Shown here: positions 12,358-23,776 of the stretch, one piece after another | Layout: every line of letters begins with the position of its first letter | Position numbering within the stretch: the first letter of the stretch is position 1 | Assembly (NCBI GenBank): GCA_014905635.1 | Contig: JABVCE010000016.1 | Location: 682,001-746,000 of the forward strand | Direction: 5' to 3' | From: Scenedesmus sp. PABB004 | Lineage: Eukaryota | Length of the DNA: 64,000 nucleotides | Position numbers and translations under genes: made by a program | The notes under the pieces: model-generated | Seen by the model: only the letters and a program-made list of their open reading frames with translations | The model's database searches: none | Told to the model about the DNA's origin: nothing

Positions 12358-14817
12358 TCACACCGCGGCCTCCTCCGCCGCCGCCTTCTGCGCCGGGTAC
12401 TTTGCCGCAGTGTCCTCCCAGCTCGTGCGGCCGTCCACGAGCGCGCGCACGAGCGCCGGCACCTCCTCCACCGGCACGCGCACCTGCGCCCGCGGCGGGC
12501 GCGCGCGCGCGCGCCGTGAGCGCGCCGCGCGGCCCCGCCGGGCGCGCGGCCCCGGCGCCGGGCGCGCGGCCCCGGCGTCGGGCGCGTGCGCTGCGCGCGC
12601 GCCGCGCGCGTCGCGCCGCGCGCCTGCGCCATGGTGTCGCGCTCGCGCAGCGTGACGCCGCCGCCCTCGAGCGTCTCAAAGTCGACCGTGATCGCGTAGG
12701 GCACGCCGATCTCGTCGGTGCGCGCGTAGCGCTTGCCGATCGTGTTGCCTGACGCGGAGGCGCGCGGCGGAGGCGCGCGCGCGCGGCGCGGCGGGGCGGC
12801 GAGGTCCGGGGGCCGAGGCGGGCGGGCGCGAGGGGCGCAGCGTGGCGGCGCGTCGCGGCGGCGCGCGCTGGGGCCGGCCCGGGCGCCAGCGCGCGCACCG
12901 GTGGTGTCGATGATGTTGGAGAGCCCCGCCGCGGTGAGCGCGTCGCTGATGGCGCCCGCGCGCGCGTTGAGCGCCTCCTTTTGCAGCAGCGGGAACACGG
13001 TCGCCTTGGTCGGCGCGACGGTGGGGCTGAAGCGGAACACCGCGCGGCTCTCGTCGCCCTCGCGCGTGTAGTAGCTGCGGCGGCGGCGGGCGGCGGGCGG
13101 TGGGGCAGGGGCGGCGGCGTCGCGCCGGCGCGCCCTCGCGGCGGCCCAGCCGCCCGCGCCACGCTCGCCGCCCGCCGCCGCGGCGCAGGCGAGGCCGCCG
13201 CCCCGAGCAAAGCCCCTAAACCCCGCCCCGCTCGGCCACGCCCCACACACGCCCACACGCACACGCGCCCACGCGCACGCCCACACACACACGCTCACCT
13301 GTGCTCAAAGATGCAGTAGATGATGCGCCCGATGCCAAAGCTCGGCTCGATCACGCTCGGCGTGAAGTTGCGCCCCGACAGGCGCTTCGTCTCGCGCCTG
13401 ATCTCGACCATGCCCGGCGCGATCGCGAACGACGCGCCCCCCACTGCGACGCTGCCCGGCTTGCCGCCCTCGAGCGTCTTGCGCAGGCACTCTGCCGCGC
13501 CGCGGCGGCGGCGGCGGCGGCGGGGTGAGGCGGGGCGGGGCGGCGGGGCGGGGCGGCGCGCGCCGCCCCCTGCGCAGCCCCTGCGCAGCCCCGCCCGCCC
13601 GCCCACGCGCGGCCGGCCCAGCGCCCGTGTGCGCCGCCGCACCCGCGTCCTCCTCGCTGAGCGCCTCGAGCGCGTCGGACACGGCCTTGGCGTCCTTCTT
13701 GAACGCGGTGCCCATCTCCTTTTTGTTGGGCGTCACGCGCAGCACCTCGACCTCACGCACCTCGGGAAACTTTTCGTACGCGGTCAGCTCGGTCTGCGTG
13801 GTGGTGGCGGGGTGGGAGGGAGAGAGAGACAGTGAGGTGAGTGTCAGTGTGGCGTGACAACGGGCGTGAGAACGGGCGTGAGAGGGTGTGAGAGAGGGCA
13901 AGGCGAGCGCGTGAGTGAGCGCGGGAGTGAGCACGGGAGGGAGGGAGCTCGGGGCCGCGCCGCGCCGCGCAAAGTCAGTCACCTTGCTCGCGGCGGTGTG
14001 CGCGCGCAGGTCGTACGCGGAGCGGTCGGCGAGGCCCGCGCACTCGACCCAGCCGTAGCTTGTCTGCACCTCAGCGTCCCAGCAGTCCTCCGCATAGTGC
14101 GCCATCTCGTGCTGCAGGTGCTGCCTGCGCGCGTGTTTGTGTGTGTGTGTGTGTGGGTGGGTGGGTGTGGTGTGTGTGTGGGGGGGGGGGTCCCCGGGCC
14201 GCGCCCGGCCTCCGCGCCGCGCCGCCGCGCCCTCAACCCCGCCCCCGCCCTCGCCCAGCGCCCCCACTCGCGCCCCGTGCGGCGCGCGCCCTTTCCCTCG
14301 CGGCGCGCGCCCCGCGCGGCGCGCCTGAAGCGCATGCGGGCGGGGTCGATGCCGACGCGTAGGAAGAAGAGCCAGGTGCGGCCAATGAAGTAGGCAAGTG
14401 TCTGGTTGGCGATGATGCCGCCAGACACGGCAGAGCCCAGCGACGTCGCCTGCGCGCGCTTGTCGTCGCCTGGCGGCCGCGCGCGCGGCGGCGCGGGCGG
14501 CGGCGGCGGCGGGGGCGGGCCAGGTCGGGCGGCGGCGGCGCCAGGGCGCGCACGGCGGCGGCGGCGGCGGCAGCGGCGGCGGCGGCCGTCCCTGGGGCGC
14601 GCGCGGTGGCGGCCGCCCGCGCCGCCGCCCCTCCCCGGCGCTGCGCGGGGCGCGACTCACTCATCTGCATGTCGCGGCTGTAGAGGAGGGGGGTGAGGTC
14701 GGCGACGCGGTCAAACTTGGGGTGGCGCTTGTCCTCGGGGTGCACAAAGTGCTCGATCTCAGCCTGGGGGGCGGCGGCGGGGCGGTGTGACGGGGGTGTG
14801 GGCGGGGGTGTGGGTGG

Positions 14818-14890
<73 letters not shown>

Positions 14891-15621
14891 CGCGCGCGGG
14901 GGGGGGGGGGGGGGGGGGGGGGCGCCGCGCGTCACCTGCGTGAACTCGCGCACGCGCAGCAGCCCCGCACGGGGGCTGATCTCATTGCGGTACCTGCGTG
15001 GACGGGCGGGTGGGCGGGTTGGGTGGGTGTGGGCGTGCTGAGCGTGTGTCGGGCATGCGTGGTGGCCGAGGGGGGAACCGAGCGGCGAGGCGGCAACGCC
15101 AGCGGCAGCGCGCCCGCGCCGCGCCGCGCGCCCGCCCCGGGCACGCACGCGTTGCCGATCTGCGCGGCCGCAAAGGGCAGCTTGCCGCCGTTGAAGTAGA
15201 GCAGGTCCCGGAAGTTCACAAAGATGCCCTGCGGGGGAGAGTGGGAGAAGTTCAGCGTGAGGGGGAGGGAGGAGGTTCGGCGGGAGGGCGAGGCGCAGCG
15301 AGAGGGAGCGAGGCGGCGCGCGTGGGGGCCAGCGGAAACGCCGCCCCCTGCGCCGCGCCGCGCCGCGCCCTCCCCCGGCCGCGCCGCCGCCGGCGCCGCG
15401 GACCTGGGCCGTCTCGGGGCGCAGGTAGCCGACCAGGTCGCCGCGGGGGCCGATGCTGGTCTTGAACATGAGGTTGAAGGGGAACGGCGCGCTGATGGGG
15501 TTCTTGGTGTCTGGCGCGAGCACGCCGTAGCGAGTGAGCTCCGCGCCGAGCGCCTCGGCGCCGAGCTCGCCCACACCCGCGAGCGTCTGCTCCGCCGCCT
15601 GCGCGGGGAGCGGCGGCGGCC

Positions 15622-15661
<40 letters not shown>

Positions 15662-16800
15662 GGGGACGGCGCGCGGCGCTGAGGCGCGGCGTCGACGCGT
15701 CGCCCGCCTACCCCGCTGCCTCGCACGCCCAGGCCCGCCCGCCGGCCCGCCCGCCCGCCAGCGTGGCCCGGCCCGCACCTTGCGCGCGTCGCCGGTGAGG
15801 GGCGCCTTGGTGTCCTCCAGCGCCGCCTCGATGGCCGCTTCGAGCAGGTGGTCGGCGCGGTAGCAGTCGCCGGTCTTGACGTCAGTGACCATGAAGTCTA
15901 CACAGGGTGCGTGTGGGTGTGGTGGGGAGTGGCGTGGGTGAGGGCGTGGTGTGTGTGTGAGTGAGGGCGTGGGGTGGCGGCCCAGGCAGGCGCGGCGCTG
16001 CTGCAGGCCGCAGCGTCCACCGCCGCCGCCGCCGCCGCCCGTGCAGCCGCTGCCCTTGCCGCCGCTGCCGCCGCAGCACGCGCCGCCCGCGCGGCTGCCC
16101 CGCCGGCGCGCCGGCTCCGTCCGCCGGGCCGCCCGCCCGCCCGCCCGCCCGCGCGCACCGGTGAAGCGGTCGACGTGGCCCGACGCCTTGAGCACAGCCT
16201 CGGGCGTGACCGCGGGGCACTCCACCTCCAGCATGTTCTCCTCAAGCACAAAGTGCGCGCGCCACGCCTGCGCGCGCACGCGGCGCCAGGGCGGCGCGGC
16301 GCGGGCGGCGGGCGGGCGGTTGGCGCGGTTGGGCGCACGCCGCCGGCGGCGCCCGCCCCGCCGCGCCGCGCCCGTCGCGTGCCACGGCCGCCGCCGCGCA
16401 CGCCGCGGGCGCGGGGCCGCGCGCGCCGCCGCCGCGCCTGCGTGAGGTTCTGCTTGATGGCGCAGCCGGGCGGGCCGTAGTCGTAGAAGCCGGCGACGCT
16501 GCCGTAGATCTTGAACGAGGGGATGTAGAAGAGCCGCCGCTCGAGCGTGTTGGTCAGGGCCGCCCGGAACGCCTCCTTGTTCTGGCCCGACGCCTTGCCG
16601 GTGGCTGCCTGGAAGGCCTTCTGGTGCTCGCCGAGCGCGAGCTTGAGCTGCTGCAGCGCCGCTATCGCCGCCTCGACCTCGGCCGCCGACGCCTTGCCGT
16701 CCTTCGCCGCGGCCTTGAGGCTGCGCACGGTGTCGCCCTGGTGCGTCACGGCCGCCTGGGCGGCCTCGATGGCCGCCTCCAGCGCGGCAGCGTCCGCCAT
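12358..16800 (-). CDS. GARS: Glycyl-tRNA synthetase, eukaryotic alpha2 type with N-terminal WHEP domain, about 13 exons
   Basis: Motifs QGDTVRSLK (WHEP), [113 protein letters not shown] and [21 protein letters not shown]; stop TGA at 12360-12358. Confidence 0.97.
14830..14886. repeat. (GA)n microsatellite followed by a poly-G run in a GlyRS intron
   Basis: Directly visible. Confidence 0.9.
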
Positions 16801-17377
16801 CGTGGTGCGACTGCTGCTGCTGCGGCCAAGGCGGCGGCGCGGGGGCGCACGCCGGGCGCGTGCGGCGGGAAGGACGGTCGGGCGGGGGAGAGGCGAATGG
16901 CAGTCGCTGCACGGCCGCAGCGCGCGGGCTTTGGCGCCGGCGCCTACCAGAGCCGCGGGCGGTCGGGCGGCGCGCAGCTGCACACCGCTCGCACGCGTCG
17001 ACGTGGCGCCACGAGCGCGGCCGCGCGCTGCTGCCGCCGGCCGCTGCCGCGCCCGCCGCCGCGACGCGCCGCAGCGCTCTCGCAGCTTACCCGCTCCTGC
17101 GTCTCAGCAGCAGCCGCCGCGCTGCTGCCGCCGTCCATGCAAGTGCTCAGCCTGCCTGCTACCGCCGCCGCCGCCGCCACGCCCGGCGCGCTGCGCGACG
17201 CCGCGCTGCCCCCGCCCCCTGCCCAGCGCCGGTCCTTGGGAGGCGATCCTTGGGAGGCAAAAATGGTGATGCCATGCAAGTGAAGGCCCCGGCACCCCCA
17301 ACCCACCCCTGCCCACCCCCTGCCGGGCGTTCGCCCACGCCGCCGCCCTGCCCCGCGCGCGCCGCCGCCGCGGCTCA

Positions 17378-20300
17378 TCACACGCTGCGGTCGCGGTAGC
17401 GCGTGGCAATGAAGTCGGTGAGCGCCCAGCAGTCCTCCCACGTGGACATGTAGCCCAGGCTCGCGCGCACGCTGCCGAGCGGGACCTCTACCCACTGGCT
17501 CGCGACCTCGGCCGGGTGGCCGAGGCCCACCGACGTCGCCGAGAGGCCCGACAGCATGTCGACGCTGTCGAGCGCCCCGGGCGGCGCGCCGGCGCCGGCG
17601 GGGAGTGAGGCGTTGCGCTCGACCTTAATGAACTCAACCTGCGCAGCGCAGGGCATGCAGCGGGGAGGCGGCGGGCGGCGGGCATGCAGGCAGGCAGGAG
17701 TGTCAGCGGGGAGGCAGGGCAGGGGGGCGCGCGGCGCGCGAGGCGCGGCGTCGGGCGAGCGAGCGCGCGCGGGCCGCGCCGGCAGGCCGCGTGTGCGCCG
17801 GCGGCGCGCGCCGCGAGGGGGGCTCACGTCGTCGTGGCAGCCCTCCTTCTTGCCAGCGAGCGACTCGATCTCGCTCTCCTGCGGCCGGCGCACGCGGCGG
17901 TTGGCGCGGCCGGCGGCGCGGTCGGCGGCGTGCGCCGCGTGCGCCGCGCCGCCGCCGCCCCTCCACAGCGCACGCACGCACGCTCACACACGCATGCACG
18001 CACGCACGCACGCGCGCGCACGGCCGCACGGGCGCACCTGCACGCCGAGGTAGTTGTAGCACGCGCCCGGGTTGCACTCGGCGCCGGTGCGGATGTGGAA
18101 CCCCGCCTCGGCGGCCTCGCGCTCAAAGGTCTTGTAGCTGCGCGCGCGCGCGGGCGCCGGGGCGGGGGCGGGGAGCGCGCGTGTGGGGGAGGGCGGGCGC
18201 GAGGGCGCGGCGCGAGCGCGGCGGCGGGCGCGGCGGCCGCGCTGCTGCGCCGGCGCCGCGCCGCGGCGCGCGCACCTGAACACTGAGCCGTCGGGGCGGA
18301 GGATTTCAAAGTTGAGGATCCCGCCCTGCACCTCGCGCGCCGCCGGGTCGCTGTGCTTGCCAAAGACGGCGACCATGCGGCGCCCGTTGCTGTGGCGCAG
18401 CGAGCGCAGCGCGCCGTGCAGGTACTCGGTCAGCGACGCGACGTGGGCCTGGATCGCGCGTACGCCGCCGAGGCGCTCGATCATGGCAAAGCCGTGCTGC
18501 GCGGCGACCAGGAGCGCGGCGCGGCGGCGGGGCGGCAGTTGGCGCGGCGGCGGCGGCGGCGGGTCGGCGGCGGCGGCGCGGCGCGCGGGCGCTGCCGGCG
18601 CGTGGCAGCGCCCGCGCCGGCCCTCCCTGCCCCATCCCGCCCCCGCGCCGCCCGCTGCCCCTCCAGCCACGCCGCGCGGGCGCCGTCCTAAGCCCTTCAA
18701 CCCTCCCATCCTAAGCCCTTAAACCCTTGGGCCCCACCTTGAGAGCGATGATGTCCAGGAAGTTGACCGTGCCGTCCTCAAGCTTGTCCGCGGGGCGGCA
18801 CTTGAGCACGTGAAAGTCGGCGCCGCTCGTCGCGAGCGCGACCGCGCCGCCGCCCCAGAAGAGCTTGCGCAGCTCCTCCGCCGCGTCGACGCGCACGATG
18901 AGCGCGCCCAGGCCCTGGCGGCGCGCGTGGGGCGGCGCGGGGCGGGCGCGTGGGGCGGGGCGCGCGGGCGCGTGGGAGGGGAGGGGAGGAGATGGGGGGA
19001 GGCGGCGGCGGCGGCGGCGGCGGTACGGGCACGCAGCGCGCGCGGCGCGCGCTGGGCTCTGGTGAGCGCGAGCTCGCACGAGTGGAGCGAGCCCGAGAGC
19101 TAACCAGAGCCCAGCCCGCGCCGCGCGCGCAGCGCGCCCCGCGCGCTGCGCGCCCCGGCCCGGCCTGCGCAGCCCCTGCGCGCTGCGCCCCAGCCCCCAC
19201 ACGTGACCCGGCCCCCTCGACGCTGCCCAGGTTCACGCCCTCGTTCACGCCCTGGTTCCCGCCCTGGTTCACGCCCGCATTCCCGCCCCGCCTCACCGTG
19301 GGGTAGCCAAACATCTTGTAGAAGCTCATCGCCACAAAGTCGGGCGAGACCGCCCGCAGGTCGAGCGGCTGCGTCGGCACGTACGCCGCCGCGTCGACGA
19401 GCACGCGCCAGCGCACGCCGTCGGTCGACTTGGCCTGCACGCCGCCGATCCAGCTCAGGGGGTACTTGACGCCTGCGCGTGTGTGCGGGCGTGGGCGGCG
19501 TGGGCGAGGCGTGGGTGAGGCGCGGGTGAGGTGCGGGCATGTTGGGTGTGGCGGGCTGGGCGGGCTGGGCGGGCGCCGCCCCGGCGCCCCGAGGGCGGCC
19601 CCTCTCCCCCGCTGCGCCGGCGCGCGCACGCACCCGCAAAGTTGTCCTCCGCCGGGAACGCAAACAGGTTGTGCACCGGCCCGGCCCCGTCGCCCTCGAG
19701 CTGGCGGGTCGGCCGCCCGTCGTCGCCCGCGAGCGGCAGGCCGCCGCCGGCGCCGCCGGCGGCGCCGGGGCCGTCGCAGGACGGCGAGGACAGCCAGTCG
19801 GACACGTAGGCTTCATTGACCGCCCGGAACGCGCCGCCCGCCTCGAGCGCGTACTCGCGCATGCCGAGCACGCTGTTGTGGTTCTCACGCAGGTACGCAA
19901 ACGTGCTCGCCCTGCGTGGGGCGTGCGTGTGGGTGGGTGGGTGGGTGGGTGGGTGGGTGTGTGGGTGTGTGGGGTGTGGGTGCGGGTGTGGCTGGCTGGC
20001 TGGCTGGGGCGAGGGCGTGGGGGGGGGGGGGAATGGGGGGCGGCGGGGGCGGCACGCGCGTGCGCGGGGCGCGAGCAGCGGCACGCGCCTGCTCCAGGGG
20101 AACGTCTCGCCCACGAGCTTCAGCGCGCCCGTCGCGCTGCGCGTGAACACGACCTGGTACTCTGCGGCCGGCGGGCGCGGCCGGCAGGGGCGGTCGGCGG
20201 CGCGACGCGGTCAGCGGCGCAGCGCGGTCAGCGGCGCGGCGCGGTGCGGCCAGCGGCGCGGTCAGCGGCGCCGCGCGCCGGCCGCCCCCGCAGCGGCGCC

Positions 20301-21240
20301 GCGCGCCGGGCGCCCGCCGCGCGTCGCGTCGCTGTGCGTCGCGTCGCGGGGGCTCGCTCACCCGCAGGGTCGGCGTTGAAGTAGCGCAGCACCAGGTCGC
20401 GCACCTCCTCCACCGCCTCGCCCGTGAGGCTGCTGCTCGGGTTGGCGCTGTGCGGGTTGCCAAACATGTGGCTGCGCAGCTCCGCAAACACCTGGCGGCC
20501 ACGCACGCGGCAGCGGCGGCGCGGCGGCGCCGGCGGCGCGAGGTGAGCCGCCGGGCGGCGGCGGCGCGCGCGTGTCCCTCGCCCTCGCGCCTCGCGCCCC
20601 GCCCTCGCTGGCTGGCTGCGCGCGCACCGCATCGATCTGGCTCTGGCAGTACACGCTGCTGCCGGTGTAGTCCTGCGCGCGGGCGCGAGGGCGGGCGAGC
20701 GGCTCGGCGAGGGCGCCGGCGGCGGCCGCCGGGGCGGGTGCGGGCGCGGGCGGCGGCGGCCGCGCGCGGCGCAGGGCGCGCACCATGTAGTGTTCGTTGG
20801 GCTGCATGCGGCACCCGACCTGCGGCGGCGCGCGCGGGCGTGCAGGCGCGGGTGTCGGCCGCCGCCGCCGCCGCCGCCGCTGCTGCTGCAGCCCGGCGCG
20901 CGGCCGGGCGCCAGCCGCGCGCGCGCCAGCCCAAGAGCAGACCCCCTCCCCCCCCCCCCCCGCTTCTGCTTGCCTCGCAGGGGTAAAGAGAATCGATCGC
21001 CCCGCCGTAGCCATACTCGTGGCCGTGCGCGGCGAGGAACGCGGCCTTGGCCGCCGCCGCCTCGGCGCTCAGCGGCGGCAGCGTCACGCACGCCGGCGCC
21101 GCCGCGCCGGGCGCGCCGTTGCCGTTGGACGGCGCGGCGGTCCAGGCCGGCGCGCCCGCGCCGCGCGCCTCCTGCTGCTGGTGCAGCGCGTTTATCTGCG
21201 CCGCGAGCGTGTCGCTGCTCGCCAGCGGCTGCTGCTCCGC

Positions 21241-21283
<43 letters not shown>

Positions 21284-22598
21284 GGCGCCTGCCCCGGCGG
21301 CGGCTCGTTGAGCACCGTGCTCAGCAGGTGGCCGAACAGCGAGCCGGTGGAGCCCTCGAGCGCCGCCGCGGCGGCCGCCGCGCCGCCGGCCGGCGCCGCG
21401 GGCCGCGCGGACGCGCCGCCGCGCGTGGCGGCGGCCGCCGCGGCCGCGAGCTCGACGGGCGTGGGCTTGATCGGCAGCGCAAAGCCGTTGGGGTCTGTCT
21501 TGAACAGGTGCCCGGGGTTGTGCATGATGATCTGGAGGTTGTGCCGCAGGTGCTTCACCTGCGCGGCGGCGGCGTGCGCGGCGTGCGAGGTCGGCGCCGC
21601 GCCGCGCGGCGTGCGCGGTCGACGCCGCGCCGCGCGGCCGTGCGGTCGGCGCCGCGCCGCGCGGCCGCGCGGCGCGGGGCGGGCGCCGGCGCGCGGGCCG
21701 CTCGCTGCGCTGCGCGGCGCTGTGTGCGGCGGTGCGCGGCGCGCCTTGCTGGGCGGGATGTCGAGCCCCACGAGCTTGCCCACGCCGGGCTTGAACACGA
21801 CCGCGTGCGGCAGTGCCTTGACGCCCGCCTCCTTGGACGCGCGCTTGAGCTCCTCGATGCACACCTGTGGGCGCGGCGGGCCGGCGCGGCCGGCGTCGGC
21901 CGGCGCGCGGGCCGGCAACGAGCGCGGGCGCCGCCGCTGCTGCTGCGCGCGCCCGCGGGTATGCTTGCGGGCGGCCGCGGGCGGCCGCCCGGCTGCGCCG
22001 CTCCCTGCCCGGCCGCGCCCGGCGGCTGCGCGCCGCGCCGCGGCAGCGCCTGCGGCGCACCTTGACAAACTTGATGTGCTCGGTGAGCTCGCGGTCGCCG
22101 GCGAGCTTGCAGAGCTCCGGGTACGAGCGCTGGCAGCCGTTGCACCAGGTCGCGTAGAAGTCTGCCGGCGCGCCCCGGGGGCGCGTGGGCGGGGGCGGCG
22201 CGCGTGCGCATGGGCCGCGGCGGCGCGCCGCGCGTGCGCAGCAGCGGCGGCGCCGCACCGACGAAGACGAGGCGCTCCCCGTCGTTGATCTCGCGGTAAA
22301 AGTCGTCGTCCGTGTGCGCCTCCACCCAGAGCTCGCTCTGCTGCTTCCACCACGCCTTGGCGGTGTCCGTGGCCGCGCTGGAGGCGAGCTGCGCCCGGGC
22401 CACATGCCGGCGCCCGCTGCTGCCCGCTGGCGCGCTGCCGGGGCCCGCCACCGGCGCCAGGCGCAGGTGGGGACCGTCGAGGCTGCAGAGCTCGCGCGCG
22501 CAGCCCCCCGGCGGCCGCGGCGCGAGGCCCGGCGTCGCCTTGCGGCGGACGAGCGCGGGCGGCCCGCAGGCGGGGCTCTGGTGTAGCAGGGAGCACAT
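17378..22598 (-). CDS. Fusion protein (~897 aa): transit peptide + thioredoxin-like domain (WCNGC) + PLP-dependent Moco-sulfurase-like (ABA3/NifS-type, class V aminotransferase fold) domain; no MOSC domain
   Basis: 15 phase-consistent exons: 22598-22259, 22161-22061, 21864-21745, 21558-20974, 20819-20784, 20672-20628, 20491-20362, 20161-20089, 19911-19634, 19472-19297, 18914-18738, 18496-18276, 18137-18038, 17878-17828, 17638-17378 (2694 nt). Motifs LVFVDFYATWCNGC, YMDYTGS, FGNPHS, VVFTRSATGALKLVGETFPW, ENHNSVLGMRE, VLVDAAA, SFYKMFGYPTGLGAL, IRTGAECNPGAC and GSVRASLGYMST. Confidence 0.9.
18687..18727. repeat. Degenerate telomere-like tract in a sulfurase intron
   Basis: cctaagcccttcaaccct…cctaagcccttaaaccct. 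Confidence 0.55.
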
Positions 22599-23776
22599 GG
22601 CGGCGGCGGGACTGCTGGTGAAGGGCGGCGCGGGCGGCGGCGCGCCCGCGACGGCGAGCGCGAGCAGCAGCAAAAGCGCGAGGACTACGTGCGCGGCCGC
22701 GCGCGGCCGGCGAGCTGTGGCGGCTCGGCGGGGCATTGTCGGGTGCGTAGGGACAAACGGTGACTGGCGCCGCAGCTCGCGCGAGGCCCGGCAGGGAGCA
22801 CGAGGGTCCCGAAAAGTCGACGAGACACCTGTCGGCGTGAACCACCTGCGCTGCCACGCGGCGAGTGGCCACTCGCTGATCATGCTGCGCAGAGCGAGGT
22901 CGCACGCCGCACGTTGCCGCGCGGGCCGCCGCCACCGCCGCCGGCTGCCGCTGCGGGAGCACGCCGCCGCGAAGTGCACGGCGCGCAGCGGGGCGTGCTG
23001 CGCGGCGGTCAGGGCGGCGGTCAGGTCAGGTCAGGGCGGCGACCTGGCCGGAGGACAGGGCTGTTGTTACAGTGCGGTCCGGCCCCTCTGGCGACGGGCC
23101 AATGGGCAGCCAGGGACAGGCCCTCCCGAACAACTCGCTCGCCAAGGCAGCGCCGCCAGGTTCGCGACGGCCCTGCTATGCAAGCTCGAGGCTGCGCCAG
23201 CCAGCGCGCTGTTCACACATCGAGCGCGCGCGTGCGTGTCGCAGCACGCGCGGCAAGTGCACACACAGGCAGCGGGGGTGGGCGTGGGTCACCGCCAGCC
23301 AGCTCCCGTGTGGTTTATTGCGCCGCGCCGCTCGGCGGCCGCCGGCTCGCATCGCTGCGGCGAGGCTGTCGCGGCGGCGCGGCCCGTGGCCTCGGCGCCA
23401 AGCTAGGCCACGCGCCGTGCTCAGACTGAAGCCAAGTGCCCGGGCGGTGGCGGCGGGCACGGCCGCGCGGCCAGCCGCCGCCGCCGCGCCCCAAGGAGAG
23501 ACCACCACCACCACCGCCGACACCGCCACCACCGAAACCCCAGGGAAGAGACAGACAGACAGGCAGTGCCGTGCGGCTGCCCACAGAGAGGGCGGGACGG
23601 CCGCGCCCGAGTCAGCGGCAAGTGCAGTTCACGAAAAAAGGGACGATACCAGCTCATCAGGTCACGCAGCGCTCGTCACAAGACTCCCGCCAGCCACAGC
23701 CACACAAGCCTGCGTCGGCCCCTGGCGGCGCCGCGCGGCGCCGCGGACCTCCGCGGCCGGCGGCGCGCGGCGGCCG

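Follow-up and report, generated by a model that had tools for sequence, protein, structure and literature searches.

A thioredoxin domain fused to a MOSC-less, ABA3-like cysteine desulfurase in Scenedesmus and in a conserved family of green-algal relatives

The fusion gene and its domains

The window studied here is a 64,000-nucleotide stretch of Scenedesmus sp. PABB004 DNA (contig JABVCE010000016.1, positions 682,001 to 746,000), and its minus strand carries, at 17378-22598, a gene that joins a thioredoxin (Trx) domain, through an Ala/Gln-rich linker, to a cysteine desulfurase of the ABA3/MOCOS type that depends on pyridoxal phosphate (PLP). Rebuilt from the sequence, the gene consists of 15 exons and 2694 nucleotides (nt), encoding 897 amino acids (aa) plus a stop codon, and this model is identical to the single 15-exon reading frame proposed by an earlier annotation of the same DNA, hereafter the sequence-only reading. 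On the comparative evidence given below we are almost certain that the Trx-desulfurase architecture is that of a real, conserved single gene. The window gene is an ordinary member of a conserved fusion family that lacks functional annotation.

The conclusion of a single gene is based on the coding signature of the linker, on gap-free exon junctions in a relative and on the widespread occurrence of the same architecture. GC content at codon positions 1, 2 and 3 is 0.83, 0.64 and 0.99 in the linker and 0.70, 0.51 and 0.95 in the whole coding sequence (CDS), whereas in the introns it is roughly flat, at 0.75-1.0. A close relative is represented by the contiguous open reading frames (ORFs) P0278 (935 aa), P0279 (795 aa) and P0164 (797 aa), found on Logan contigs of 2.8-3.7 kb, and as these ORFs are not interrupted at the positions of the window's 14 introns, the contigs are most simply read as assembled transcripts. 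All 14 junctions align gap-free to P0278/P0279 with 598 of 853 residues identical (70%), linker included, and one BLASTP alignment to P0164 spans residues 67-896 of the model at 68.9% identity. The alternative, that adjacent Trx and desulfurase genes were merged because a GC-rich spacer stays open by chance, is hardly credible. Chance ORFs of more than 1000 aa are present in the window and the genes are tightly packed (about 590 nt to the next one), yet the third-position GC (GC3) of the linker and its conserved motifs argue against a merger, as do the contiguous and transcript ORFs of relatives that cover both domains. Exon 4, which as the sequence-only reading had stated holds the end of the Trx domain, the linker and the start of the sulfurase in one frame, contains no methionine between the Trx tail and the desulfurase start.

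The length of an ORF is worthless as evidence at this locus because GC-rich DNA yields long chance ORFs: with 0.72-0.82 GC per 2-kb bin of the window, stop-free frames of 400-1000 codons without a Pfam match are found on both strands, the longest at the locus being 1046 aa. Of the six antisense ORFs that cross the gene, none matched a Pfam family at E up to 0.01. Single exons of the fusion gene scored below the Pfam cut-offs, as expected of fragments (Thioredoxin 21.4 bits vs 23.5 for a 33-aa fragment in exon 2; Aminotran_5 19.4 and 17.1 bits vs 21.5). Eleven introns are GT-AG and three (introns 3, 4 and 8) GC-AG; every acceptor ends in cag, and the donors mostly begin with gtgcg or gtgag. The three GC-AG junctions match the contiguous ORFs of relatives. 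Intron 3 is in frame and free of stops, and unspliced it would put 62 extra residues into the Trx fold; its GC donor is confirmed by the gap-free match to P0278, P0279 and P0164. Three GC-AG introns among 14 are a high share for a single gene (donors just below 21745, 20974 and 20089, minus strand).

The desulfurase aligns end to end with ABA3/MOCOS at about 38-40% identity and belongs to the same class-V, NifS-like branch of PLP enzymes. Shared motifs are FL...YGY, ENHNSVLG, SFYK-FGYPTGLGAL, the C-NPGAC loop, (H/E)GC-x-DD and the LGYMST-ED block. As the frame ends about 115 aa after the cysteine loop, there is no MOSC domain, and orthologues match Aminotran_5 at E 1e-33 to 1e-36 without PF03473 or PF03476; the complete NifS-like domain without MOSC that had been claimed is thus borne out. 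Also in agreement with the earlier claim, the PLP lysine (Lys622) and the persulfide cysteine (Cys782) are kept and the preceding cysteine is lost: Cys782 aligns with ABA3 Cys430, and the position of ABA3 Cys428 is alanine (plant ABA3 rows read RTGCFCNPGAC). The fusion further differs from ABA3/MOCOS in lacking MOSC_N along with MOSC, in a variable equivalent of Cys435, in YLDYTGS vs YLDHAGAT, in an insertion of about 40 residues after GC-x-DD, and in the N-terminal Trx preceded by a targeting or anchor region. In a family alignment of 38 sequences, the PLP lysine, the His of ENHNS, the Asp of DAA and the loop cysteine (C683 of P0164) are invariant. So is the KEGC cysteine (C709 of P0164), which is conserved in Trx-less relatives too. 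The gene should not be filed as a molybdenum cofactor (Moco) sulfurase, MOSC_N and MOSC being absent.

Structure work was done with P0164 as a stand-in, which is 80% identical to the window protein in the Trx comparison. The AlphaFold2 (AF2) model of full-length P0164 has a mean predicted local distance difference test (pLDDT) score of 80.3 with both domains confident, and a predicted TM-score of 0.79 that is not readable as docking. Foldseek matched the model to the type-II desulfurases SufS, CsdB and Nfs2 (TM-score on the target 0.78-0.85, E about 1e-21, 16-20% identity). Judged by the model and the alignments, the likeness to SufS is one of fold only, the sequence family being the MOCOS branch and not SufS. 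No MOCOS structure was among the sequence or fold matches of P0164, and a search of the ESM Atlas with P0171 returned generic Aminotran_5 clusters only (0.82, below lead level).

The sequence-only reading had also described a Trx fold with the atypical active site WCNGC, and this domain is confirmed by the Pfam matches of relatives (PF00085 at 66 bits in the orthologue P0005, and present in P0164), by alignment and by the AF2 fold of P0164, in which the Trx region, aa 21-150, reaches pLDDT 90-97. WCxxC is present in 43 of the 44 database fusion proteins scanned, the exception being cut at its N-terminus; the family active site is WC-x-[G/A/S]-C, with His frequent. The domains of 39 Trx-bearing relatives were aligned together with that of one fusion of the protein disulfide isomerase (PDI) type; in the 38-sequence alignment (P0164 numbering) W55, C56 and C59 are at least 90% conserved and the cis-proline P102 is invariant. 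The best solved relative of the P0164 Trx is 6LYW/6LYX, "Thioredoxin-like 2-1, chloroplastic" (E 5e-18), which we take to be ACHT1 in UniProt naming, as compared to about 1e-11 for classical thioredoxins. The two share a WW motif ahead of the fold, a (V/F)DFY-TWC core, FVKV and the cis-proline LP. They differ in the active site, WCGSC in the structure, and in the DPNGF hairpin, linker and enzyme that are attached in the fusion. A passage of PMC12596114 gives WCRKC as defining TrxL2; by its motif, the window Trx is not a TrxL2 of the WCRKC type. A short-protein search with the Trx part of P0005 yielded 38 candidates and a sole match, P0270, a result too thin to classify the Trx. P0270 (JGI, 237 aa) is itself a Trx-rhodanese fusion, another case of a Trx joined to a sulfur-transfer domain.

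The DPNGF element that follows the Trx is conserved and modeled as a confident hairpin (pLDDT above 90). The linker of P0164 is mostly disordered in the model, with two short helices; the linker motifs are common to P0278/P0279 and partly to P0004 and P0005. Positions of all features are collected in Table 1.

Table 1. Features of the Trx-desulfurase fusion gene (positions in the window)
Feature	Position	Strand	Remarks
Probable 5' CDS extension from in-frame ATG 22736	22599-22736	-	+46 aa, giving 943 aa
Hydrophobic 16-residue segment VVLALLLLLALAVAGA	22641-22688	-	after a basic stretch; signal/anchor-like
Cys pairs before the Trx	22485-22595	-	C-x8-C (aa 2-11, 22566-22595); C-x4-C (aa 33-38, 22485-22502)
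Exons 1-5	22598-22259, 22161-22061, 21864-21745, 21558-20974, 20819-20784	-	
Exons 6-10	20672-20628, 20491-20362, 20161-20089, 19911-19634, 19472-19297	-	
Exons 11-15	18914-18738, 18496-18276, 18137-18038, 17878-17828, 17638-17378	-	
Trx domain, probably ACHT-type (aa ~84-225)	21445-22349	-	end of exon 1, exons 2-3, start of exon 4
Active site WCNGC (Cys120, Cys123)	22133-22147	-	read from sequence
Exon 4: Trx tail, linker and first 30 desulfurase residues	20974-21558	-	one frame; donor GC (GAG/GCAAGC)
Linker (aa ~226-352), Ala/Gln-rich	21064-21444	-	motifs GSLFxHLL, L..Q.N.LH.QQE, PAC
ABA3/MOCOS-like class-V PLP cysteine desulfurase (aa ~353-897)	17381-21063	-	end of exon 4 to exon 15
PLP-binding Lys622 in SFYKMFG	19315-19317	-	K523 of P0164, invariant in 38 sequences
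Catalytic loop RTGAECNPGAC	18059-18091	-	Cys782 at 18076-18074
Insertion VEFIKVER ... LGHPAEVASQW after KEGC-x-DD, then LGYMSTWED block	17381-17878	-	exons 14-15
Stop codon TGA	17380-17378	-	

Distribution and descent of the fusion

An exhaustive phmmer search with the exon 12-13 read-through (P0002) gave 485 matches at E up to 0.001, 150 of them listed; a Pfam scan of the 44 longest of these 150 found three with Thioredoxin plus Aminotran_5, 12 with MOSC and 29 with Aminotran_5 alone. A second search, with the complete fusion P0005 (a Trinity transcript ORF), gave 1570 matches at E up to 1e-10 among 8000 candidates. PF00085 and PF00266 without MOSC occur together in 40 of the best 120 of these 1570 matches, and all 40 rank within the top 46. 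The remaining six of the 46 are P0004, which is cut inside the Trx, three proteins that start in desulfurase exon 5, one that starts at the desulfurase N-terminus, and P0185, which is long yet has no Trx match. With exon 9 as query against longer proteins none of 8000 candidates scored, probably as the low-complexity middle of the exon crowded the word index.

Orthologues with the fusion, a check that the sequence-only reading had called for, are therefore found, several of them MMETSP or Trinity transcript ORFs, and among the matches listed they span most green-algal classes as well as Mesostigma. Named sources include Astrephomene, Edaphochlamys, Volvox africanus, Chlamydomonas schloesseri, Gonium, Chlamydomonas sp. 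UWO 241, Dunaliella salina, Bryopsis, Ulva, Botryococcus, Tetraselmis, a pedinophyte, Pyramimonas parkeae and Mesostigma viride. The records are named "hypothetical protein", "thioredoxin domain-containing protein", "pyridoxal phosphate-dependent transferase" or "molybdenum cofactor sulfurtransferase". The window gene shows the signature of the family, namely the order Trx-linker-desulfurase, WC-x-[GAS]-C, DPNGF, RTG-x-[E/H/S]-C-NPGA and the insertion after KEGC-x-DD.

The earlier statement that no characterised protein has this architecture stands in so far as we found no characterisation, whereas any suggestion that the architecture is unique does not, as it is widespread in databases. Aimed literature searches returned no title or abstract on a Trx-desulfurase fusion; a 2023 review of desulfurases in photosynthetic organisms may list the architecture. 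Passages of a 2025 review on thioredoxins and persulfides (PMC11763069) mention fusions of cysteine desulfurase with TusA (CD-TusA) or rhodanese (CD-Rhd) and of mercaptopyruvate sulfurtransferase with glutaredoxin (MST-GRX), and no TRX-CD fusion appears in those passages.

For the desulfurase domain a quick maximum-likelihood tree was built from 81 rows and 506 columns (LG+G4), with branch support from the Shimodaira-Hasegawa-like approximate likelihood-ratio test. In this tree the window protein adjoins P0164 (support 98) inside a clade of 53 green-algal rows (support 99), 40 of which bear the Trx and 13 do not; both values are starred. The 13 Trx-less rows are cut gene models and a Trx-less subclade that includes Chlorella, Micractinium and Monoraphidium. 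Rows of the green-algal clade share the insertion of about 40 columns, which the MOSC-type and protist rows lack. The nearest outgroups of the clade are MOSC-less protist proteins, from Blastocystis, Entamoeba, Stygiella, Tritrichomonas and Sphaeroforma, and the MOSC-type proteins form a separate clade (support 99, starred). As the nearest Trx-less relatives are already without MOSC, the tree indicates that the Trx was added to a MOSC-less lineage and was not exchanged for MOSC. The idea that Trx stands in for MOSC as the product of a swap is not supported: the fusion clade lies among MOSC-less relatives, the Trx is N-terminal and MOSC C-terminal, and at least one green alga keeps a MOSC-type sulfurase. 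The trebouxiophyte [Myrmecia] bisecta has a canonical protein with Aminotran_5, MOSC_N and MOSC (P0149), and since this type too occurs in a green alga, the fusion has to be regarded as a paralogue of ABA3 rather than as a substitute for it.

Members of the Trx-less subclade (P0204, P0205, P0146, P0251, P0013 and P0028) keep the C-x-C loop, have a changed insertion (WEWVWV) and carry signal-like or transmembrane (TM)-like segments; from these sequence features the subclade looks like a membrane-bound sister family. MOSC-less homologues named molybdenum cofactor sulfurase are common in anaerobic protists, namely Blastocystis, Stygiella, Pelomyxa, Entamoeba, Monocercomonoides, Paratrimastix and Tritrichomonas (among them P0207, P0210, P0220, P0223, P0232, P0233 and P0249). 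One literature search for the function of these protist homologues found no paper.

The N-terminus and the compartment

The ATG at 22598 ("MCSLL"), which the sequence-only reading took as the start, is probably internal, since P0278 aligns through it and the same methionine is residue 77 there. By this comparison the true start is probably the in-frame ATG at 22736. A single BLASTP alignment between the extended protein and P0278 begins at the hydrophobic segment, continues across "MCSLL" and reaches the Trx; the GC3 of the extension is 0.87, a value that cannot separate coding from non-coding DNA here. The hydrophobic segment reaches a maximum Kyte-Doolittle mean of 2.75 over 17 residues. Of the 33 family members in which 40 or more residues precede the Trx, ten have such a signal- or anchor-like segment, and the other 23, complete transcript ORFs among them, have Arg/Ser/Ala-rich presequences with few acidic residues. 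An N-terminus of this kind makes the earlier assignment of a transit peptide and a plastid location unsafe. Judging from these N-termini, the fusion protein is targeted or anchored somewhere, the plastid stroma being one option of several.

Two cysteine pairs stand between the hydrophobic segment and the Trx, the second of them followed by SLDGP, and both are kept in P0278. The second pair recurs as C-x4-6-C-[S/P/T] in chlorophycean, ulvophycean, trebouxiophycean and pedinophyte members, and a looser C-x(2-8)-C is found before the Trx in 19 of 42 members, many N-termini being short or cut.

Possible roles of the fused thioredoxin

Cysteine desulfurases start almost all sulfur trafficking, and the acceptor with which they are paired decides the destination of the sulfur; MOSC, rhodanese, TusA, SufE and SufU are known as such partners, and type-II desulfurases depend on a dedicated persulfide acceptor, as in SufS-SufE/SufU. 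Reasoning from the sequences and by analogy with such pairs, we tentatively propose that the fused CxxC is the acceptor or reductant of the Cys782 persulfide, a reading we regard as possible, though somewhat short of probable. The PLP domain, whose lysine and catalytic cysteine are conserved, would take sulfur from L-cysteine and hold it as a persulfide on Cys782. The fused Trx would be the dedicated acceptor, its exposed Cys120 attacking the persulfide, after which either Cys123 would resolve the intermediate, so that sulfide is released and the oxidised Trx is recycled by the thiol-redox system of the compartment, or the sulfane sulfur would be handed on to a target. The whole would form a self-contained, redox-coupled module for sulfur mobilisation. 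H2S release, targeted persulfidation and selenocysteine lysis, put forward in the sequence-only reading, would be candidate activities. The cysteines flanking the persulfide cysteine of ABA3 reportedly form a loop disulfide; the loop cysteine that pairs in ABA3 would be redundant or harmful next to a fused CxxC.

The proposal has parallels in known systems. In ABA3, according to a passage of PMC3916724, the Cys430 persulfide is passed to the fused MOSC domain, and the algal fusion likewise combines a persulfide-carrying cysteine with a fused receiving domain, here, as proposed, the Trx. Parts of PMC8931425 and PMC11763069 describe CD-Rhd and CD-TusA fusions that occur in nature, among them a bifunctional CD-Rhd. 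These fusions (CD-Rhd from Pseudorhodoferax) and the pairs SufS-SufE/SufU resemble the algal protein in that a desulfurase is covalently or tightly coupled to a persulfide taker, and the P0164 model has a SufS-like desulfurase fold. In contrast to them, the algal fusion is eukaryotic, its Trx is N-terminal to the desulfurase, and the partner is a dithiol oxidoreductase, able not just to carry a persulfide but also to reduce it. Thioredoxins free H2S from the persulfides of sulfurtransferases, according to a section of PMC11763069, and for mercaptopyruvate sulfurtransferase the chemistry is that of the Trx steps proposed here, although that enzyme is of the rhodanese type, takes its sulfur from 3-mercaptopyruvate and works with Trx as separate proteins.

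The loop cysteines were tallied in proteins whose loop follows 250 or more residues, classed by regular expressions, with 72 fragments set aside. The first loop cysteine, equivalent to Cys428 of ABA3, is present in 1 of 42 Trx-bearing proteins, in 69 of 96 with neither Trx nor MOSC and in 20 of 21 with a long, MOSC-type tail; among the 27 proteins of the middle group that lack it, at least six are cut models of the fusion clade. A second fusion, in another eukaryotic lineage, is the P0117 cluster of four members (P0117 and P0156-P0158; JGI, ENA and metagenome records), which joins a PDI-type Trx, WCPHC, to a MOSC-less, MOCOS-like desulfurase. It has the domain order and enzyme family of the algal fusion, and its loop, RTGEMCNPGSC, is likewise without the first cysteine. 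Its Trx differs from the ACHT-type algal one: the best matches in the Protein Data Bank are PDIs (E 4e-25), and identity to the algal Trx is 21-24%, as compared to 32-46% among the algal Trx themselves. One member has been named by JGI with both functions. Because WCxxC is kept in 43 of 44 fusions, the loop cysteine is lost in 41 of 42 and a PDI-type Trx is found on the same enzyme family, a functional link between Trx and desulfurase is plausible from the sequences.

Several points weigh against the proposed acceptor role. Loss of the loop cysteine is mostly confined to one clade and represents few independent events, not 42, and the third loop cysteine is itself either C or A within the family. 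P0117 stands on a long branch outside the starred algal clade, and the approximately unbiased (AU) test keeps it as a possible sister of that clade (p 0.5); it is the different type of its Trx that argues for independence, and on that ground the PDI-type fusion may be a separate, convergent event. Moreover, the algal Trx appears to be of the ACHT kind, which would suit a switch no less than an acceptor, and ACHT proteins are described, in the literature passages concerned, as high-potential oxidisers of chloroplast enzymes and not as reductants. A complex prediction for the Trx and desulfurase parts of P0164 with PLP scored 0.00 in both runs, made without controls or an alignment, and speaks neither for nor against binding.

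The main rival to a role of the Trx as acceptor or reductant is that it serves as a redox switch, which we consider clearly less probable though well worth weighing. Here the ACHT-type Trx would change the oxidation state of a desulfurase cysteine that has a regulatory or catalytic role (Cys782 or the KEGC cysteine, for instance, by way of a mixed disulfide), and would toggle activity with the redox state of the compartment, in response to light and dark or to peroxide via 2-Cys peroxiredoxin (Prx). The closest solved relative, chloroplastic and with the site WCGSC, is consistent with this, and abstracts and passages of PMC12596114 describe ACHT and TrxL2 proteins as oxidising and thereby deactivating chloroplast enzymes via 2-Cys Prx. 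The desulfurase domain also offers a second invariant cysteine, that of KEGC, but its presence in Trx-less relatives means that it is not specific to the fusion; the loss of the loop cysteine in Trx-bearing proteins is more simply explained by altered persulfide handling, and the Trx of the second fusion is PDI-type rather than ACHT. A different location for the whole enzyme seems unlikely, on the N-terminal sequences, though it would account for several features at once: a signal or anchor would place the protein in the thylakoid lumen, the secretory pathway or the periplasm, and the family would be a membrane-anchored or lumenal desulfurase whose fused Trx, acting like a PDI, keeps the catalytic cysteine reduced or shuffles disulfides and so enables persulfide chemistry outside the reducing cytosol or stroma. 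The hydrophobic segment that follows a basic stretch when translation starts at ATG 22736, its counterparts in ten of the 33 members, the signal- or TM-like segments of the Trx-less algal paralogues, the additional conserved cysteine pairs ahead of the Trx and the PDI-type Trx of the other fusion all point this way. The 23 members with presequences and no such segment point the other way, and PLP enzymes are unusual in oxidising compartments. We know of no desulfurase in the thylakoid lumen or in the secretory or periplasmic space; an enzyme located there would be a source of sulfide or persulfide, or would salvage cysteine or selenocysteine, and the PDI-type fusion would represent convergence on the same solution.

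Two further readings concern the substrate and the pathway. That the enzyme is a selenocysteine lyase, which recycles selenium for selenoproteins while the Trx handles selenide or perselenide, is very unlikely. The nearest solved folds do include CsdB/SufS entries titled selenocysteine lyase and JGI has named one fusion "selenocysteine lyase/cysteine desulfurase/...thioredoxin", but such names are COG labels of a generic kind. Selenoproteins occur in many green algae and are not known from land plants, and the fusion, too, has green-algal members but none among the land-plant matches listed; against this, close Trx-less relatives occur in anaerobic protists, which to our knowledge lack selenoproteins. 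Slightly more improbable still is an algal Moco sulfurase, that is, the ABA3 orthologue acting together with a separate MOSC protein. The enzyme's place in the ABA3/MOCOS branch with its identity to plant ABA3, and the JGI label "molybdenum cofactor sulfurtransferase" on some members, could be cited in its favour, as could the Chlamydomonas ABA3 gene, described as uncharacterised in a passage of PMC10385300. However, P0149 of [Myrmecia] bisecta marks the fusion as a paralogue, the tree joins the fusion clade to MOSC-less proteins and keeps it apart from the MOSC-type clade, and targeting or anchor sequences stand at the N-termini of the fusion proteins.

Desulfurase-acceptor fusions as such are already known, and the interest lies in the family, a conserved eukaryotic desulfurase with a fused candidate acceptor domain. 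A Trx wired to a desulfurase would extend the list of partners by one that reduces a persulfide as well as carrying it. With both domains in one natural polypeptide, the fusion would also allow a direct action of thioredoxins on enzyme persulfides, and the way it works, to be studied, for which separate proteins are the usual approach. Conservation of the family extends from prasinophytes to volvocine algae and to Mesostigma, under record names that are generic or uninformative, and one biochemical study would annotate dozens of genes; the label "molybdenum cofactor sulfurtransferase" on such genes is made wrong by the missing MOSC.

Genes around the fusion are densely packed. The next one downstream, at about 14759-17103 on the minus strand, begins some 590 nt past the stop codon of the fusion gene and encodes a WHEP-TRS domain (E 1.2e-7, 32.1 bits vs a cut-off of 32.5); by its motifs, the product resembles a glycyl-tRNA synthetase.

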